64,000 bases of DNA. Origin: Dehalococcoidia bacterium (GTDB lineage Bacteria > Chloroflexota > Dehalococcoidia > Lucifugimonadales > Lucifugimonadaceae). The stretch spans positions 768,848 to 832,847 of the forward strand of contig CBDCYP010000001.1 of the NCBI GenBank assembly GCA_965224235.1, written 5' to 3'. Shown piece after piece: positions 559 through 5,867 of this stretch. The position numbers and the translations under genes were made by a program. Positions within the stretch are counted from its first letter, which is position 1. Every line of letters begins with the position of its first letter. Below the pieces are notes generated by a model, which saw nothing but the letters and a program-made list of their open reading frames with translations, searched no databases and was not told where the DNA came from.

Positions 559-1746
559 CTATTCCGCCGCATTCTTCAGCGCCCCCGCCAAATTGCCGCG
601 CGGCTCTACTGCCGTATGCCGCAGACCGAGCCACTCCGCCATCGACTCCAATTCCCGCGCCAAGGCCGCCGATACGTCGCCAGCGTCGCGGCCTTTCTCA
701 AGGTACGCGGCCTGAACCAGCAAGACGCCGGCGCCACGGTCTGCCTTCAGATCGACCCGCGCGACGAGTTCACCGGCGTGAAGAAACGGGTAGACGTAGT
801 AGCCGTACCGTCTCTTGGACTTCGGCACGTATATTTCGATGCGATATAAGAATTCGAAGAGCCGCTCTGTCCGGTCCCGAAACCAGACCAGGGAGTCGAA
901 CGGGCTAATGATGGCCGTTGCGCCGGCCCGACGCGGCAGCCGGGCGTCCCTGTGCATGTACGCACGCGGAGGCCAACCCTCGACGCTGGCTTCGTTAAGT
1001 AGGCCCTCTTCGACTATTTCCCGCACCCGGGGCCGTGCTTCGGGAACCTTGATCCGGTAGTAGTCGGCCAGGTCGGCCAGCGTCCCGATCCCGAGGGCCT
1101 CGGCGCCGAGTATGAGCATCTCGCGTTGGGCGTCTTCCCGTGACATTGGGGGCATTTGCAGGAACTTGGTCGGAATCACTCTTTCGGCCAAGTCGTAGAC
1201 CCGGGTGAAGTTCCCGCGTCTGCTCGCCGCGAGTGAGCCGGTGTGAAACAGCCACTCCAGGGCCACCTTGCCCCTGCTCAGCCCCCACCACGGGCCGTTT
1301 CGCTGGCCTGCCTCGTCAAGGTCAGACACGGTCAAAGGGCCGCGTGCGGCCACCTGTTGCCGCACTGACTCGATGTAGTCCCGATGCTCGTCGATCAGGC
1401 ATTGCAACTGCGGCCAGGGCCGCGCAGTATCCATACGGTGCCGAAGCAACGGGTAGTGGACCATCGGCATGAGCGATGCCATGTGGCCCCAGCCCTCGAA
1501 GAGCCTCGATTTGCTATAGGCGAAGTCGTCCAGGCGCTCACGGGGATAGGGTCCGAGCCGCGAGAACGCCGGCATGTAGTGCGTACGCACTGCCACGTTC
1601 ACCGAGTCGAGTTGCAGCAGCTTTACGTGCTTGAGCAGGCGGTCGTAGTGCCGGGCGTCGACACGTCCCGACGGCCGGTTGACGGCGAATCCCTGGGCGG
1701 CGAGGGCAACGCGGCGCGCCTCTGCGCGGGTTAGTGCGATCTTCAT
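559..1746 (-). CDS. ycaQ: winged-helix DNA glycosylase of the YcaQ/AlkZ (DUF1006) family
   Basis: ORF 559..1800. Family-typical N-terminus MKIALTRAEARRVALAAQGF... begins at the internal ATG 1746, so the TTG at 1800 is probably too far upstream. Length and motifs (HYMPAFSRLGPY, FEGWGH, YVPKSKRRYGYYVYPFL) match the family from memory. Confidence 0.75.
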   Translation of the reverse strand: MKIALTRAEARRVALAAQGFAVNRPSGRVDARHYDRLLKHVKLLQLDSVNVAVRTHYMPAFSRLGPYPRERLDDFAYSKSRLFEGWGHMASLMPMVHYPLLRHRMDTARPWPQLQCLIDEHRDYIESVRQQVAARGPLTVSDLDEAGQRNGPWWGLSRGKVALEWLFHTGSLAASRRGNFTRVYDLAERVIPTKFLQMPPMSREDAQREMLILGAEALGIGTLADLADYYRIKVPEARPRVREIVEEGLLNEASVEGWPPRAYMHRDARLPRRAGATAIISPFDSLVWFRDRTERLFEFLYRIEIYVPKSKRRYGYYVYPFLHAGELVARVDLKADRGAGVLLVQAAYLEKGRDAGDVSAALARELESMAEWLGLRHTAVEPRGNLAGALKNAAE

Positions 1747-2037
1747 GAGCAGAAGACGAATGAAGCGCGGCGCGGCGGTCCGGATTTCCGAAGCGGGCAA
1801 CGACCCAACGTCATGGCGAAGCGGCTCATGGCCTCACGATGCCTCCGTCGGCGCGCCGAATCTCGTTCCACGCGCCCCCGAACTCCCATTCGCCATGCGG
1901 AAACTTCGCCGCAAGTTCCTCGTCGATGTCGATGCCCAGGCCAGGCTTGCCGTTTGACCACATGTGACCGTCCCGGACCTCGGGGCAGCCGGGGAATACC
2001 TCTTTCGTGAGCTCGCCGAAAACGGCGTATTCCTGCA
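1685..2037. repeat. direct repeat copy 1 (353 bp; manD 3' end + intergenic + ycaQ 5' end)
   Basis: Aligns base-for-base with 3127-3479 at an offset of 1442, with no indels and 6 substitutions counted by eye. Confidence 0.95.
1826..2037 (-). pseudogene. 3' fragment (last ~70 codons) of a ManD-type enolase-superfamily dehydratase
   Basis: Collinear with the 3' end of CDS 3268..4560 and encodes ...EVFPGCPEVRDGHMWSNGKPGLGIDIDEELAAKFPHGEWEFGGAWNEIRRADGGIVRP*. Homology stops abruptly at 2037 and there is no upstream part of the gene. Confidence 0.85.
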
Positions 2038-2049
2038 GGACCGGACCAA

Positions 2050-2214
2050 GTGTCTAGAGGTCTAGGGACACTCTGAACAAGTGGCCGATGCGCTTGGCAG
2101 AGCGGAGGTTCCCCCCTCCTGAATCCTCCCCCTATGGGGGAGGAGGCCAGAACCCTTCGACAAGCTCAGGGCGAACGGATTGGAACGCGGAGTTGTTCAG
2201 AGGTTCCCTAGACG
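2050..2214. mobile_element. MITE/REP-like element with 23-nt imperfect terminal inverted repeats
   Basis: Left end 2050-2072 is ggtctagggacactctgaacaag. The reverse complement of right end 2192-2214 is cgtctagggaacctctgaacaac, matching 19 of the 23 aligned positions: a 9-nt block (gtctaggga) and a 10-nt block (ctctgaacaa) separated by two mismatches. The interior holds the GC hairpin cctccccc-tat-gggggagg (2125-2143) and the string ttcgacaagctcagggcgaacgg, which resembles dispersed repeats seen in uncultured high-GC genomes. Confidence 0.55.
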
Positions 2215-2571
2215 TTCACATTTTTCGGCAAACTGTATTCGAGTCATCTCATCCTTTTCACCGACGACATCCGAGTGAGCTTCAAAAGACTCGTCCGGCG
2301 TATGCTCAACCGCCTGGTTCAAGCTCCAACAGGTCGCAACTGTGACTCGCACCACGCATCCTGTTTCGGACCACTTTGGGAATTTTGCGAGTACCTGTTT
2401 GGGGGTCGCTAACTGCTCTGCCGCGACAGACATCCGGTTTGTCTTCACAGGGCGCGAATTGTTTTGGAAGGCACCGGGAACGATTGACCCATTCGGTTCG
2501 ATCCATCTCGGATGCACGGCGCGCAATAACCCGTCATCGGCTTGAAAGTCGATCCTCGCAGTCCGTGACAT
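2197..2571 (-). CDS. hypothetical protein (124 aa), downstream gene of the inserted two-gene cassette; no family recognised
   Basis: ORF track 2197..2571 with an ATG start, 19 nt after the stop of the upstream gene. No Tyr residues. The last 5 codons and the stop lie inside the right inverted repeat of the MITE-like element. Confidence 0.6.
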   Translation of the reverse strand: MSRTARIDFQADDGLLRAVHPRWIEPNGSIVPGAFQNNSRPVKTNRMSVAAEQLATPKQVLAKFPKWSETGCVVRVTVATCWSLNQAVEHTPDESFEAHSDVVGEKDEMTRIQFAEKCERLGNL

Positions 2572-2590
2572 TCTTGGGGTGCGTTGACCG

Positions 2591-3022
2591 TTAACTATCG
2601 AATCTTAGTCCGACCAGACGATCAACGACCTCATTCCCGCATCCGGCTGCCCCCTCCTCGGCCTCCAATTCACCGGTCGCAGCTCTCACGGCTCGCACCA
2701 ATCGGATTTCACCGCAAACGTCTACGCGCGCAAGGAGACGATCTGTGCCACGGGTTCCCCAAGACAATTCAATCCCGCCGTCAACCAGCGGCGCCGCGAA
2801 AGGAGACGGGCAGTCGGTGGGAGCAATTACGCTCAGCACTTGGTAAGCCACTGAATAGGCGGAGCGAGATGGAGCAATGGACTCATCGTCATACCAGCCG
2901 TCTTCAAGCTCTCGAAGGGTTGCCAATTGGCAAATATCGTCCGGTCGAGGTGCCGCGGTCCGCGTTCCACCGGGGACAAAAAAGGCCTCGATTCCTGTAA
3001 CCTCCTCGCGTTCAATAGTCAT
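2591..3022 (-). CDS. hypothetical protein (143 aa), upstream gene of the inserted two-gene cassette; no family recognised
   Basis: ORF 2591..3151 trimmed to ATG 3022, which has a GGAGGG Shine-Dalgarno 7 nt upstream (ccctcc at 3030-3035 on the plus strand). Notable motifs are LATLRELEDGWYDDESIAP and DGGIELSW. Codons are visibly more A/T-ending than in neighbouring genes. Confidence 0.65.
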   Translation of the reverse strand: MTIEREEVTGIEAFFVPGGTRTAAPRPDDICQLATLRELEDGWYDDESIAPSRSAYSVAYQVLSVIAPTDCPSPFAAPLVDGGIELSWGTRGTDRLLARVDVCGEIRLVRAVRAATGELEAEEGAAGCGNEVVDRLVGLRFDS

Positions 3023-3096
3023 CACAATTCCCTCCAATAAGGAGAATGTTTGGGCGATTCCAAACCCGACGCAGTCGCGGCACTGATCGGAACGCG

Positions 3097-3188
3097 AGCT
3101 TAACACGCCCCGACAACCGCTTCCCTGCGAATCCCTGGGCGGCGAGGGCAACGCGGCGCGCCTCTGCGCGGGTTAGTGCGATCTTCAT
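3097..3188 (-). pseudogene. 5' remnant of a ycaQ allele (about 30 codons)
   Basis: MKIALTRAEARRVALAAQGFA is identical to ycaQ codons 1-21. The next part, GKRLSGRVK, is still recognisably related to ycaQ VNRPSGRVD, and after that the sequence is unrelated. It forms part of the chimeric 76-aa ORF 3012..3242. Confidence 0.8.
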
Positions 3189-3479
3189 GAGCAGAAGACG
3201 AGTGAAGCGCGGCGCGGCGGTCCGGATTTCCGAAGCGGGCAACGACGCAACGTCATGGCGAAGCGGCTCATGGCCTCACGATGCCTCCGTCGGCGCGTCG
3301 GATCTCGTTCCACGCGCCCCCGAACTCCCATTCGCTATGCGGAAACTTCGCCGCAAGTTCCTCGTCGATGTCGATGCCCAGGCCAGGCTTGCCGTTTGAC
3401 CACATGTGACCGTCCCGGACCTCGGGGCAGCCGGGGAAGACCTCTTTCGTGAGCTCGCCGAAAACGGCGTATTCCTGCA
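3127..3479. repeat. direct repeat copy 2 (353 bp)
   Basis: See copy 1. This copy is contiguous with the complete dehydratase gene 3268..4560. Confidence 0.95.
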
Positions 3480-4560
3480 CTCCGAAGTTCCAGCAGTTCA
3501 GGTCCATCATCAGGTTTGCGGCGTGGCCGACTGGAGACGTATCCCCCGGCCCATGCCACGCCGTTCGCACCCCGAACATCTCCGCCATCGCGGCCAACTT
3601 GCGGCACGGCGTGATCCCGCCCATCTGCGAAACGTGGATTCGTATGAAGTCGATCAGCCGGTCCTTGACCATGGGAATCACCTCGTGCGGGTTGTTCCAC
3701 AGTTCGCCCATCGCCAACGGCGTTGCGCATAACTGACGGACCAGCCGGAAGTAGTCTTGGTCCTCCGGCGAAAACAGGTCTTCGAGGAAGAACAGGCGGT
3801 ACTGCTCGACCTCTTTGGCGAACCAAACGCCGCCGATCGCCGGGATGCGCTCGTGGACATCGTGGAGCATCTCGAAATCCCAGCCGCACTGTGAACGAAC
3901 GCGGTCGAACAGCCCCAGGGCGCTGTTCATGTACGGCTTCGGCTCAAATATGCCGGGCGGGTGCGCGTATTTCTTGTCGGGCGACAGTTCCTTTGTCCAG
4001 GTGGCAACGGGGCGAGGACCGCCGCCGGTCCCCGGGGCAGTTTCGGTTGATGGAAGCAAGCCTTTTGTGCCGTACGTCGCGTAGCCGGGCGTGTCGACCT
4101 GAACGCGGACGTGGTGGAATCCCTGATCCAGGAAGGAGCTCACTTTGTCCGCTACCTCTACCGACTCTCTTCCGCTTGCGTGGACATAGACTGCGGCGGC
4201 CTCACGCGCCCTCCCTCCCAGGAGGTCATACACCGGCATGCCGGCCATCTTGCCCTTGATGTCCCACAGAGCCTGATCGACTCCGCTCAGCGCATTGTTG
4301 AGAATGCCGCCGTTGCGCCAATACGAACTGACGTAACTCGATTGCCAGATGTCCTCGATGTCGCTCACGTTCCGACCGATCAGAAACGGGCGCAGATAAT
4401 TCTCCACCGCGACCTTCACCGGCAGCGGCCGCTGGGTGAACGTGGCGCAGCCGACCCCGTAAAGGCCCGGTTCGCTTGTTTCCACCTTGACGATCACGAG
4501 GCGGATGCCGTCCGGTTCGGTCAGGATGACTCTTATGTCTCTGATCGTGACGTTATTCAT
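3268..4560 (-). CDS. enolase-superfamily dehydratase, D-mannonate/D-galactonate dehydratase (ManD/RspA-like) subgroup
   Basis: 430-aa ORF with N-terminus IRDIRVILTEPDGIRLVIVKVETSEPGLYGVGCATF...VDQALWDIKGKMAGMPVYDLLGG, typical of the mandelate racemase / muconate lactonizing family. GAGGAG Shine-Dalgarno before the ATG. Confidence 0.8.
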   Translation of the reverse strand: MNNVTIRDIRVILTEPDGIRLVIVKVETSEPGLYGVGCATFTQRPLPVKVAVENYLRPFLIGRNVSDIEDIWQSSYVSSYWRNGGILNNALSGVDQALWDIKGKMAGMPVYDLLGGRAREAAAVYVHASGRESVEVADKVSSFLDQGFHHVRVQVDTPGYATYGTKGLLPSTETAPGTGGGPRPVATWTKELSPDKKYAHPPGIFEPKPYMNSALGLFDRVRSQCGWDFEMLHDVHERIPAIGGVWFAKEVEQYRLFFLEDLFSPEDQDYFRLVRQLCATPLAMGELWNNPHEVIPMVKDRLIDFIRIHVSQMGGITPCRKLAAMAEMFGVRTAWHGPGDTSPVGHAANLMMDLNCWNFGVQEYAVFGELTKEVFPGCPEVRDGHMWSNGKPGLGIDIDEELAAKFPHSEWEFGGAWNEIRRADGGIVRP

Positions 4561-4619: not shown

Positions 4620-5867
4620 TCAAGGCCGGACAATCGCGCCGTCGGCGCTGCGAACGAGTTCCCTGAACATGTCCCGCTCCGGTATCGGATAACTCGCTGC
4701 CAACTTCTCGTCGATATCGACGCCAAGTCCGGGCTTGCCGTTAGGCCACATATGACCCTCCCGTACTTCGGGGCAGCCGGGGAATACCTCGCGGGTCCGT
4801 TCGGGAAACACCGCCCACTCGTGGACGCCGAAGTTCCACGTGTTCAACTCCAGCATCAGGTTGGCTGCGTGCCCGACGGGGGAAGTGCCTCCCGGCCCGT
4901 GCCACACGGTGCGAACGCCGAACATCTCGCTTAACGCAGCGTACTTGCGGCACGGTGTAAAGCCTCCCACCCGCGAGACGTGAATCCGGATGAAATCGAT
5001 CAGGCGCTCTTTGACCATCGGGATGATCTCGTGCGGGTTCGACCAAAGCTCCCCCATGGCGATGGGAGTCGTACAGATCTGGCGCACATGCCGGAAGTAG
5101 TCCTGATCCTCGGGGGTGAACAGGTCTTCCAGGAAGAAGAGGCGGTACTGCTCCACCTCTTTGGCGAGCCACACTCCGTCGATCGCCGGGATGCGTTCGT
5201 GGACGTCGTGCAGCATCTCGAAATCCCAACCGACCTTGCTGCGGAGGTGATCGAACAGGCCGAGGGCAGACTTAATATAGGGCTTCGGCCCGAAGATTCC
5301 GCCGGACCATGACGTCACGGCCCGCGGCCCGCCCATCGTTCCGGTACGCCCGTCCACGTCGAGGCCGCTGCGCGCGCCATAGGTATGGTATCCCGGCGTT
5401 TCGACCTGAACCCTCAGGTAGTGGAAACCCTGCTCAATATAGGCGCGCACCTGATCCTCGACAGCTTCGTTGTCTCGCCCGCTGGGGTGCACGTAGACTG
5501 CGGCCGCTTCTCTGGCGCGGCCGCCCAGCAGATCGTACACAGGCATGTTCCCCATCTTGCCCTTGATGTCCCACAGGGCCTGATCGACCCCGCTGAGAGC
5601 GTCTCCCAGAATCGTGCCGTTGCGCCAGTACGAACTGACGTTGGCAGACTGCCATATGTCTTCTATATCGAAGACGCTGCGGCCAATGAGAAACGGACGC
5701 AGATAGTCGTCCACCGCGGACTTGACCGTGAACGGTTGCCGGTCGTACGTCGCGCAGCCGAGGCCGTACAGACCCGGCTCGGTAGTTTCGACCTTGACGA
5801 CGGCGAGGGCGTTGTTGTCCGGCTGAGTAAGTATCGTCCGGATGTCGCGGATTTTTGGGTCGCTCAA
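4620..5867 (-). CDS. enolase-superfamily dehydratase (ManD/RspA-like), tandem paralog
   Basis: 415-aa ORF, collinear and highly similar to 3268..4560. TTG start preceded by GGAGGA. Confidence 0.8.
   Translation of the reverse strand: MSDPKIRDIRTILTQPDNNALAVVKVETTEPGLYGLGCATYDRQPFTVKSAVDDYLRPFLIGRSVFDIEDIWQSANVSSYWRNGTILGDALSGVDQALWDIKGKMGNMPVYDLLGGRAREAAAVYVHPSGRDNEAVEDQVRAYIEQGFHYLRVQVETPGYHTYGARSGLDVDGRTGTMGGPRAVTSWSGGIFGPKPYIKSALGLFDHLRSKVGWDFEMLHDVHERIPAIDGVWLAKEVEQYRLFFLEDLFTPEDQDYFRHVRQICTTPIAMGELWSNPHEIIPMVKERLIDFIRIHVSRVGGFTPCRKYAALSEMFGVRTVWHGPGGTSPVGHAANLMLELNTWNFGVHEWAVFPERTREVFPGCPEVREGHMWPNGKPGLGVDIDEKLAASYPIPERDMFRELVRSADGAIVRP

Follow-up and report, generated by a model that had tools for sequence, protein, structure and literature searches.

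A cut-down gene pair in a Dehalococcoidia genome, related by profile matches to the candidate defence system PDC-M32

Introduction

The closest described relatives of the two small genes analysed here, gene A and gene B of a 64,000-nucleotide stretch from a Dehalococcoidia bacterium (GenBank assembly GCA_965224235.1, contig CBDCYP010000001.1, positions 768,848 to 832,847; the whole stretch is called the window below), are the proteins of PDC-M32, an entry of the PADLOC collection. The PDC entries are 145 candidates, predicted because such genes lie within BREX, DISARM or type I restriction–modification loci (bioRxiv 10.1101/2024.01.29.577857), and the only paper to name PDC-M32 lists PADLOC matches in Sinorhizobium prophages (PMC12429752). 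Further afield, the Tpt1/KptA RNA 2'-phosphotransferases and the RES proteins are NAD+-using members of the ADP-ribosyltransferase (ART) superfamily (PMC9503650). The RES-Xre/MbcT-MbcA, DarT-DarG, ParT-ParS and CmdTAC systems are like the pair studied here, as we read it, in placing a small NAD+-fold-like effector beside a dedicated partner. CmdTAC is a three-component arrangement, and CapRel is a fused toxin–antitoxin defence protein.

The A–B cassette of the window is a cut-down derivative of a three-gene operon, X-A-B, and its gene A is an in-frame chimera in which the start of X is joined to the conserved C-terminal domain of A. With middling confidence, we read the pair as a toxin/partner or abortive-infection-type system in which a toxin-like effector, B, would be held by its binding partner, A, the window copy being a minimal derivative. 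The A and B families have no Pfam or NCBIfam model and no solved relative, and their sole catalogue entry is the predicted PADLOC candidate. To PDC-M32 the present analysis adds a linked A–B core, a natural fusion, a usual but hypervariable third gene, a confident model of B and a list of its invariant residues.

Genes A and B match the two PDC-M32 models

An earlier, sequence-only reading of the window had described two small same-strand genes separated by 19 nt, and the listing of open reading frames (ORFs) confirms both the genes and their spacing. The features of the cassette are as follows.

3022 to 2591, reverse strand: gene A, an ORF of 143 amino acids (aa), studied through PADLOC model PDC-M32A, the A-family alignment, an AlphaFold2 model and the ratio of nonsynonymous to synonymous substitution rates (dN/dS)
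2571 to 2197, reverse strand: gene B, an intact ORF of 124 aa, studied through PADLOC model PDC-M32B, a family of 96 clusters, an AlphaFold2 model, Foldseek and dN/dS
3102 to 3023, reverse strand: cassette leader, aligning with positions 1687–1766 of the orthologous contig L001, the region upstream of the L001 gene X
3035 to 3030, reverse strand: GGAGGG Shine-Dalgarno sequence of gene A, 7 nt ahead of its ATG

The strong Shine-Dalgarno sequence attributed to gene A is thus present. Inspection of the sequence revealed nothing comparable ahead of gene B, which suggests that its translation is coupled to that of A. A scan for promoters and terminators around the cassette, together with Rfam, gave nothing informative and no promoter-like site. 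The cassette lies in the same orientation as the neighbouring genes and no terminator was detected ahead of it, so that read-through transcription is possible.

Neither protein matches a Pfam or NCBIfam family, and to this extent the view that they belong to no known family holds. It does not hold for PADLOC, where the two proteins match the two halves of PDC-M32: residues 32–95 of A align with positions 261–324 of the 375-position PDC-M32A profile (E 1e-10) and residues 11–101 of B with positions 3–91 of the 123-position PDC-M32B profile (E 2.6e-7). The orthologs P0001 and P0002 also match PDC-M32B. The pair, which had been proposed as a defence-like candidate, therefore matches both models of a catalogued candidate anti-phage system and, judged by these profile alignments, is a distant relative of it. 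In both, a larger partner is followed by a protein of ~125 aa, and window B aligns over most of the B model. The A proteins differ, with ~375 aa for PDC-M32A compared with 143 aa for A here and 218–293 aa in its close relatives, which have a separate X ahead. PDC-M32A is matched only at positions ~260–337 of 375, by window A and by the full-length relatives. No counterpart of its first ~260 positions was found, the X proteins matching no PADLOC model. The idea that PDC-M32A is a fusion of X to A was set aside, as the lengths fit but there is no sequence support.

The GC content at third codon positions is 0.53 in A and 0.58 in B, compared with 0.75–0.79 in five neighbouring genes, and GC across the insert is 0.535–0.59 compared with 0.61–0.66 in the surroundings, in agreement with the foreign origin proposed earlier from codon usage. 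Measured against the L001 ortholog, dN/dS is 0.19 for B, 0.28 for the retained domain of A and 0.24 for the flanking AlkZ-like gene, each value being an average over the whole branch. No stops or frameshifts lie within either ORF. Chance ORFs were considered and rejected, since both proteins have homologs and dN/dS is low. Genes A and B are real, horizontally acquired and under purifying selection.

B is always preceded by A, usually within a three-gene operon

An alignment of the B subfamily searched against metagenome contigs gave 336 relatives, of which 80 loci were retrieved. An A gene lies directly upstream of B on the same strand in all 71 of the metagenomic loci with at least 330 nt of upstream sequence, with a median gap between the A and B domain envelopes of -12 nt and an overlap of A with B by 66 nt in three loci. 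The same was true of the initial searches, where every B locus with upstream sequence had an A homolog directly ahead of it. In P0047 (L016, positions 2304–3251) the two are fused naturally in a protein of 315 aa, with the A domain at residues 71–172, the B domain at 191–294 and an X homolog ahead. The tight coupling of A and B proposed from the sequence is borne out, and the survey of co-occurrence that had been suggested as a check finds the pair strictly linked on the B side.

Starting from A homologs the picture is less symmetrical. B is present in L018 and L019; L013 (4001–4565) has an intact A and, after it, 45 aa that are left of B (E 1.7e-9); and A occurs without B in L011 and L014/L015. 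B without A was found in none of the loci examined. If B is harmful in the absence of A, one would expect just this, a B that is never without A and an A that is able to outlive B. The orphan A of L014/L015 adjoins genes for a DDE transposase and an N6 methyltransferase.

In most relatives the pair is preceded by a third gene, X. The operons below, with that of L001 described in the next section, illustrate the arrangement.

L002: X of 223 aa, A of 257 aa, B of 139 aa
L005 (a Dehalococcoidia metagenome-assembled genome): X of 243 aa, A of 293 aa, B of 139 aa
L006: X of 229 aa, A of 199 aa, B of 135 aa
L016: X of 225 aa, then A fused to B, 315 aa in total
L019: X of 245 aa, A of 173 aa, B of 124 aa

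The genes of the three-gene operons overlap or sit a few nucleotides apart, and the L016 X protein has homologs in the X proteins of L001 and L002 (E 1e-23). Of 46 metagenomic loci whose sequence extends far enough ahead of A, some 31–33 have an ORF of 215–297 aa in first position on the same strand, ending between -14 and +34 nt from the start of A, and across metagenomic loci L029–L108 both the size of X (~220–260 aa) and its tight coupling are kept. The three-gene form X-A-B is ancestral.

The sequence of X is not kept in the same way. The proteins at this position fall into at least ten clusters between which phmmer, hmmsearch and hhalign find no similarity, so that a single family of X proteins is not supported. 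No cluster has a Pfam or PADLOC match, and a search of PDB sequences with the X profile found nothing. Within the largest cluster, X and A both have a mean pairwise identity of 0.42 and B has one of 0.53; across clusters X alone becomes unalignable, which suggests that it is either evolving very fast or has been replaced repeatedly.

The window cassette is the product of an in-frame deletion

The sequence-only reading took the cassette to be a native two-gene unit, and this is not borne out. Contig L001, ~87% identical to the window at the DNA level, shares both the insertion and its chromosomal position, with a gene of the MR/MLE enolase superfamily on one side and an AlkZ-like gene on the other. 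Its cassette has three genes, encoding X of 219 aa, A of 218 aa and B of 123 aa. By blastn the two are collinear in two blocks, window 4784 to 2998 corresponding to L001 3 to 1791 and window 2996 to 2194 to L001 2790 to 3589. The end of the first block (window 3102 to 2998, L001 1687 to 1791) takes in the leader and, from X, the Shine-Dalgarno sequence, ATG and ~8 codons in the DNA alignment. At the deletion junction, ~2996–2998, the window resumes at codon ~84 of the L001 A gene. Compared with L001 the window thus lacks ~1 kb, having lost nearly the whole of X together with 83 codons of A, its variable N-terminal third, and the join is in frame. The resulting start of gene A is as follows.

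3022 to 2999, reverse strand: first ~8 codons of gene A (MTIEREEV), matching the start of L001 X (MAISGEEI)

Beyond this chimeric start the window A protein is 77% identical to residues 83–218 of L001 A. The window A keeps the entire conserved A domain and the window B keeps every residue that is invariant in its family. An in-frame deletion that spares the A domain is what one would see if B were unable to do without A, although it does not prove this. Two-gene forms without X also occur naturally, with an A of 144–149 aa followed by B in L009/L010 and L018, so that the window has converged on an architecture that exists elsewhere. In L009/L010 (GCA_038324555.1) the 149-aa A and 128-aa B genes overlap and lie beside a PIN/PhdYeFM toxin–antitoxin pair and genes for HerA (DUF87) and NurA.

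The deletion raises the question of whether the window copy still works. It might be a decaying, non-functional remnant whatever the ancestral function was, an explanation that we regard as unlikely and that is in any case compatible with a toxin/partner system for the family as a whole. The loss of ~1 kb including X and 83 codons of A would fit such a relic, as would the lack of a promoter-like site and the fact that the short protein, P0003, was found on one contig only, while the full-length P0004 and P0005 occur elsewhere. In addition, an insertion resembling a miniature inverted-repeat transposable element (MITE), absent from L001, swaps the last two codons of B (DL* to GNL*) and supplies its stop codon. 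Against decay, the deletion is in frame and retains the Shine-Dalgarno sequence and ATG of X, the whole A domain and all the invariant residues of B are present in ORFs free of stops and frameshifts, and the dN/dS values of 0.19–0.28 are low, though averaged over the whole branch. Natural pairs with an A of 144–149 aa exist as well, and the residues of B that are altered by the MITE-like element belong to its variable C-terminal tail.

The fold and conserved residues of gene B

Among 1.84 billion representative proteins, a HMMER profile found relatives of B in only 96 clusters, nearly all of them stand-alone, single-domain proteins of 100–150 aa. In an alignment of 65 family members Ser48, Pro92 and His99 are invariant (65/65), and Phe35 (63), Gly104 (61), Gln86 (57) and Lys106 (54) are nearly so. 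Arg17 is found in 51 of the 65; most of the others have an arginine at position 18 and two have histidine at 17. The segments of B singled out earlier as possible parts of a small catalytic site (LLRAVHPRW, NRMSV and VEHTP...AHSD) contain the family-conserved Arg17, Ser48, Gln86, Pro92 and His99, and the protein is free of tyrosine, as had been stated.

The AlphaFold2 model of B is confident, with a predicted local distance difference test score (pLDDT) of 94.9 and a predicted template-modelling (TM) score of 0.88. When this model was compared with the PDB using Foldseek, Tpt1/KptA RNA 2'-phosphotransferase chains made up 13 of the 19 best matches, the best match of all having a probability of 0.97, a TMq of 0.53 and an E-value of 0.08. 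The top 20 also included AvrPphF ORF2 (HopF), which we take to be likewise of ART-like fold, and a chain of an Xre-RES toxin complex (probability 0.15). In a library of viral structures the first match was an unnamed protein of 149 aa (E 5.7e-4), followed by phage and baculovirus RNA 2'-phosphotransferases. In the model Arg17 lies on strand 1 (residues 14–19), Ser48 on strand 2 (46–51) and Gln86 just before strand 4 (87–90), and the order of these three residues is compatible with that of the ART motif triad ([H/R], [Y/S], [E/Q/D]). The Foldseek matches are individually weak but mutually consistent, and methods based on sequence are silent, so that an ART-superfamily-like fold for B is a lead of moderate strength.

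In the PDB and in the viral library alike, Tpt1/KptA comes closest to B in structure, but B differs from it in length (124 aa compared with ~180 aa), in having neither the N-terminal RNA-binding lobe nor the HGT motif, and in being always paired with A. Membership of the KptA family (PF01885) was rejected, there being no Pfam match, no two-lobe architecture and an hhalign probability of 0.2% against a KptA alignment built here from 8 sequences of 178–193 aa (E. coli and seven phages). The RES family (PF08808) was likewise rejected, since no Pfam match was seen and the Foldseek probability is low, even though a RES toxin structure is among the structural neighbours of B. The classical toxin families RelE/ParE, MazF, PIN, Doc/Fic, HEPN/MNT, GNAT, Zeta and HipA were rejected too: there was no Pfam or NCBIfam match, and none of them appears in the top 50 structural matches of B. 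Unlike the ART toxins, the B family has no conserved catalytic glutamate, its invariant residues being serine, histidine and proline instead; neither sequence nor Pfam links B to RES, DarT or ParT, and A is not of the Xre, macrodomain or ParS type that accompanies toxins of this kind.

Another reading starts from the RNA 2'-phosphotransferases, the nearest structural neighbours of B, which serve in repair or processing. B might be harmless, either Tpt1-like or some other enzyme that modifies nucleotides or RNA ends, and A (with X) might provide structure or specificity as its subunit in a small complex for metabolism or repair that has no part in conflict. The chromosomal location of the family and its rarity in mobile elements would suit such a complex. 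We consider it distinctly improbable, however, as B has neither the RNA lobe nor any profile similarity to KptA, the distribution is sporadic, the composition foreign and the first gene hypervariable, and the pair matches a pair of models for a defence candidate. Moreover, the one-sided dependence of B on A is unexpected for an enzyme and its subunit, where the loss of either should be tolerated, and suggests that B is harmful alone.

The partner domain of gene A

Across its family A varies in length from ~140 to 300 aa, and conservation is confined to ~120 aa at its C-terminus. The family pattern is L..L...W-D-G...P...P.I.P...G-G/S-I-E/D-L.W, and in 62 aligned sequences Trp43, Asp44, Pro74, Pro78, Gly82 and Trp88 are invariant or nearly so. 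The motif LxxLxxLxDGWYDDESIAP...DGGIELSW, which had been picked out in gene A from its sequence, is therefore real and corresponds to the signature of the family. The AlphaFold2 model (pLDDT 82.3) has a helix-helix-sheet-helix domain at residues ~25–140, and residues 1–17, which include the chimeric start, are predicted to be disordered. The domain matches PHROG 30544, a phage family with no assigned function, at positions ~254–321 of 372, much as it does in PDC-M32A. This was the only hit when A, B, X and the 65 B-family members were compared with Pfam, NCBIfam and PHROGs. When the A profile was compared with PDB sequences, weak but repeated matches to the coat proteins of the leviviruses MS2 and fr were seen (best E 0.019, profile positions 64–125); as these proteins are absent from the top 50 Foldseek matches of A, the matches were taken to be due to chance.

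The sequence-only reading had likened the pair to a type II toxin–antitoxin module, in which a labile antitoxin, A, would repress the operon and its proteolysis would free the toxin, B. The resemblance is genuine in that the genes are small, adjacent and co-directional with the presumed antitoxin first, B co-occurs strictly with A, orphan A genes and a remnant of B are found, and a PIN/Phd pair adjoins L009. The broader logic of a toxin and its partner, which that reading also contained, fits the absence of B without A, the orphan A genes and B remnant, and the fusion. Nothing, however, points to the classical type II design with a labile, DNA-binding antitoxin. A is compact, confidently folded and has no match to helix-turn-helix, ribbon-helix-helix or any other DNA-binding or autoregulatory domain; the fusion P0047 argues against release through degradation of a separate antitoxin; a third, tightly coupled gene is present in most relatives; and the classical toxin folds are missing from the structural matches. 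A stable-looking folded domain that can be fused to B and has no DNA-binding part makes this design less likely, and we think it rather improbable. The more general idea of a toxin- or defence-like pair is the best-supported reading. The fusion recalls CapRel, since it suggests that A can regulate B when both form a single chain, in the manner of a domain for autoinhibition or sensing; the folds are unrelated, and A and B are usually encoded by separate genes.

A model for the pair and its distribution

In the model that we favour, B would be a small ART-superfamily-like enzyme with a constellation of Arg, Ser, Gln and His residues, most likely acting on NAD+. It would modify a nucleic-acid or protein target, or consume NAD+, and would be harmful when free. 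The A–B fusion, the overlap of the genes and their strict linkage suggest that the conserved domain of A binds B, and this binding would keep B inactive. X and the variable front part of A may tune or trigger the release of B, for example on phage infection, and the window copy would be a minimal pair of A domain and B. Membership of the ART superfamily, the use of NAD+, the toxicity of B, its neutralisation by A and a role in defence are thus what we infer from the comparisons above.

A number of observations weigh against this model. No structural relative of the A model was found with Foldseek, the best TMq being 0.31, and no DNA-binding module was detected in A when helix-turn-helix, ribbon-helix-helix, AbrB and Phd domains were sought in Pfam and NCBIfam. 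For B, no Foldseek match in the PDB reaches an E-value of 1e-3 and TM-scores are only ~0.5; a PDB sequence search with the B profile found nothing; none of the 65 family members has a Pfam match even at E ≤ 10; hhalign gave the 0.2% probability quoted above for KptA; and a conserved catalytic glutamate, present in most ARTs, is absent from the 65-sequence alignment. PDC-M32 is itself a prediction by "guilt by embedding" only (Payne et al, bioRxiv 10.1101/2024.01.29.577857). The window copy, with no X and with a MITE-like element at the 3' end of B, may be inactive. Lastly, phages and plasmids yielded little: a tblastn search of isolate phages (50,697 records) gave no match for window B, the subfamily member P0019 or full-length A, isolate plasmids gave none for window B or P0019, and one B relative was found in 2.9 million viral contigs compared with 336 in metagenomes. 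The family is chromosomal, sporadic in distribution and rare in mobile elements.

The same counts bear on whether the cassette is a phage-derived counter-defence or superinfection module left behind in the chromosome. The sole IMG/VR contig with a match does carry X-A-B, the A domain matches PHROG 30544, PDC-M32 matches are reported from Sinorhizobium prophages and one unnamed phage protein resembles B in structure (E 5.7e-4). Against it stand the empty phage search, the lone viral contig and the lack of adjoining phage genes at the window cassette, and we consider a phage origin of this kind very improbable.

If the favoured model of a toxin-like B and its partner is correct, and B is a toxin or defence effector, B would be among the smallest ART-fold enzymes known and would have an unusual active site, and the natural in-frame deletion would mark the ~120-aa A domain as a candidate minimal neutraliser. 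A bolder proposal, possible but on balance doubtful, is that X-A-B is an immune system of three genes, so far undescribed but widespread among bacteria of soils and sediments, with a hypervariable sensor, a partner of new fold and an effector from a minimal, Glu-less clade of the ART fold that has an Arg/Ser/Gln/His site and perhaps a new NAD+-dependent chemistry or target; the window would then hold the smallest neutralising unit. Should B prove harmless, the family would still be a well-defined three-protein complex present in hundreds of environmental genomes.

Flanking duplication, MITE-like insertion and neighbouring genes

The cassette lies between two copies of a direct repeat. The features outside the cassette are as follows.

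3103 to 3479, reverse strand: upstream copy of the 377-bp direct repeat, comprising the last ~215 nt of the MR/MLE gene, a 25-nt spacer and the AlkZ-like gene up to codon ~46
1661 to 2037, reverse strand: downstream copy of the 377-bp direct repeat, comprising the MR/MLE 3' fragment, the spacer and the 5' end of the intact AlkZ-like gene
1800 to 559, reverse strand: intact AlkZ-like gene
1963 to 1826, reverse strand: 45-aa ORF, a copy of the MR/MLE C-terminus and a fragment of the duplication
3242 to 3012, reverse strand: 76-aa ORF, ~46 AlkZ codons followed by the cassette leader, a fragment of the duplication that ends 10 nt inside gene A
2066 to 2207, no strand assigned: MITE-like insertion of ~142 nt, with terminal inverted repeats GGGAACCTCTGAACAA and TTGTTCAGAGTGTCCC of 16–21 nt, flanked by a duplicated (C)TAG

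The mobile context that had been ascribed to the cassette amounts to this duplication and the small MITE-like insertion; integrase, transposase, phage and plasmid genes were looked for near the cassette in the window and none was found. As L001 has the same duplication, the insertion is older than the divergence of the two lineages. The two copies in the window are 96.6% identical, counted base by base, compared with 85.7% for the two copies of L001, and they resemble each other more than either resembles a copy in L001, so that later homogenisation, perhaps by gene conversion, is probable. The duplication would fit a single homologous crossover of a circular piece of DNA that carried the cassette and a copy of the junction.

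The empty site of the MITE-like element in L001 reads GTCTAGACC. The element is present in a single copy in the window and its predicted fold has an energy of -78.7 kcal/mol (z -3.4). A CTAG target is typical of IS5-type elements.

The MR/MLE gene of L001 (228–1521) is split into two ORFs, which, given a coverage of ~2x for this contig, is probably a sequencing error and not a real frameshift. In the window two tandem MR/MLE paralogs (3268–4560 and 4620–5867), with ~72–75% DNA identity, lie directly upstream of the cassette.

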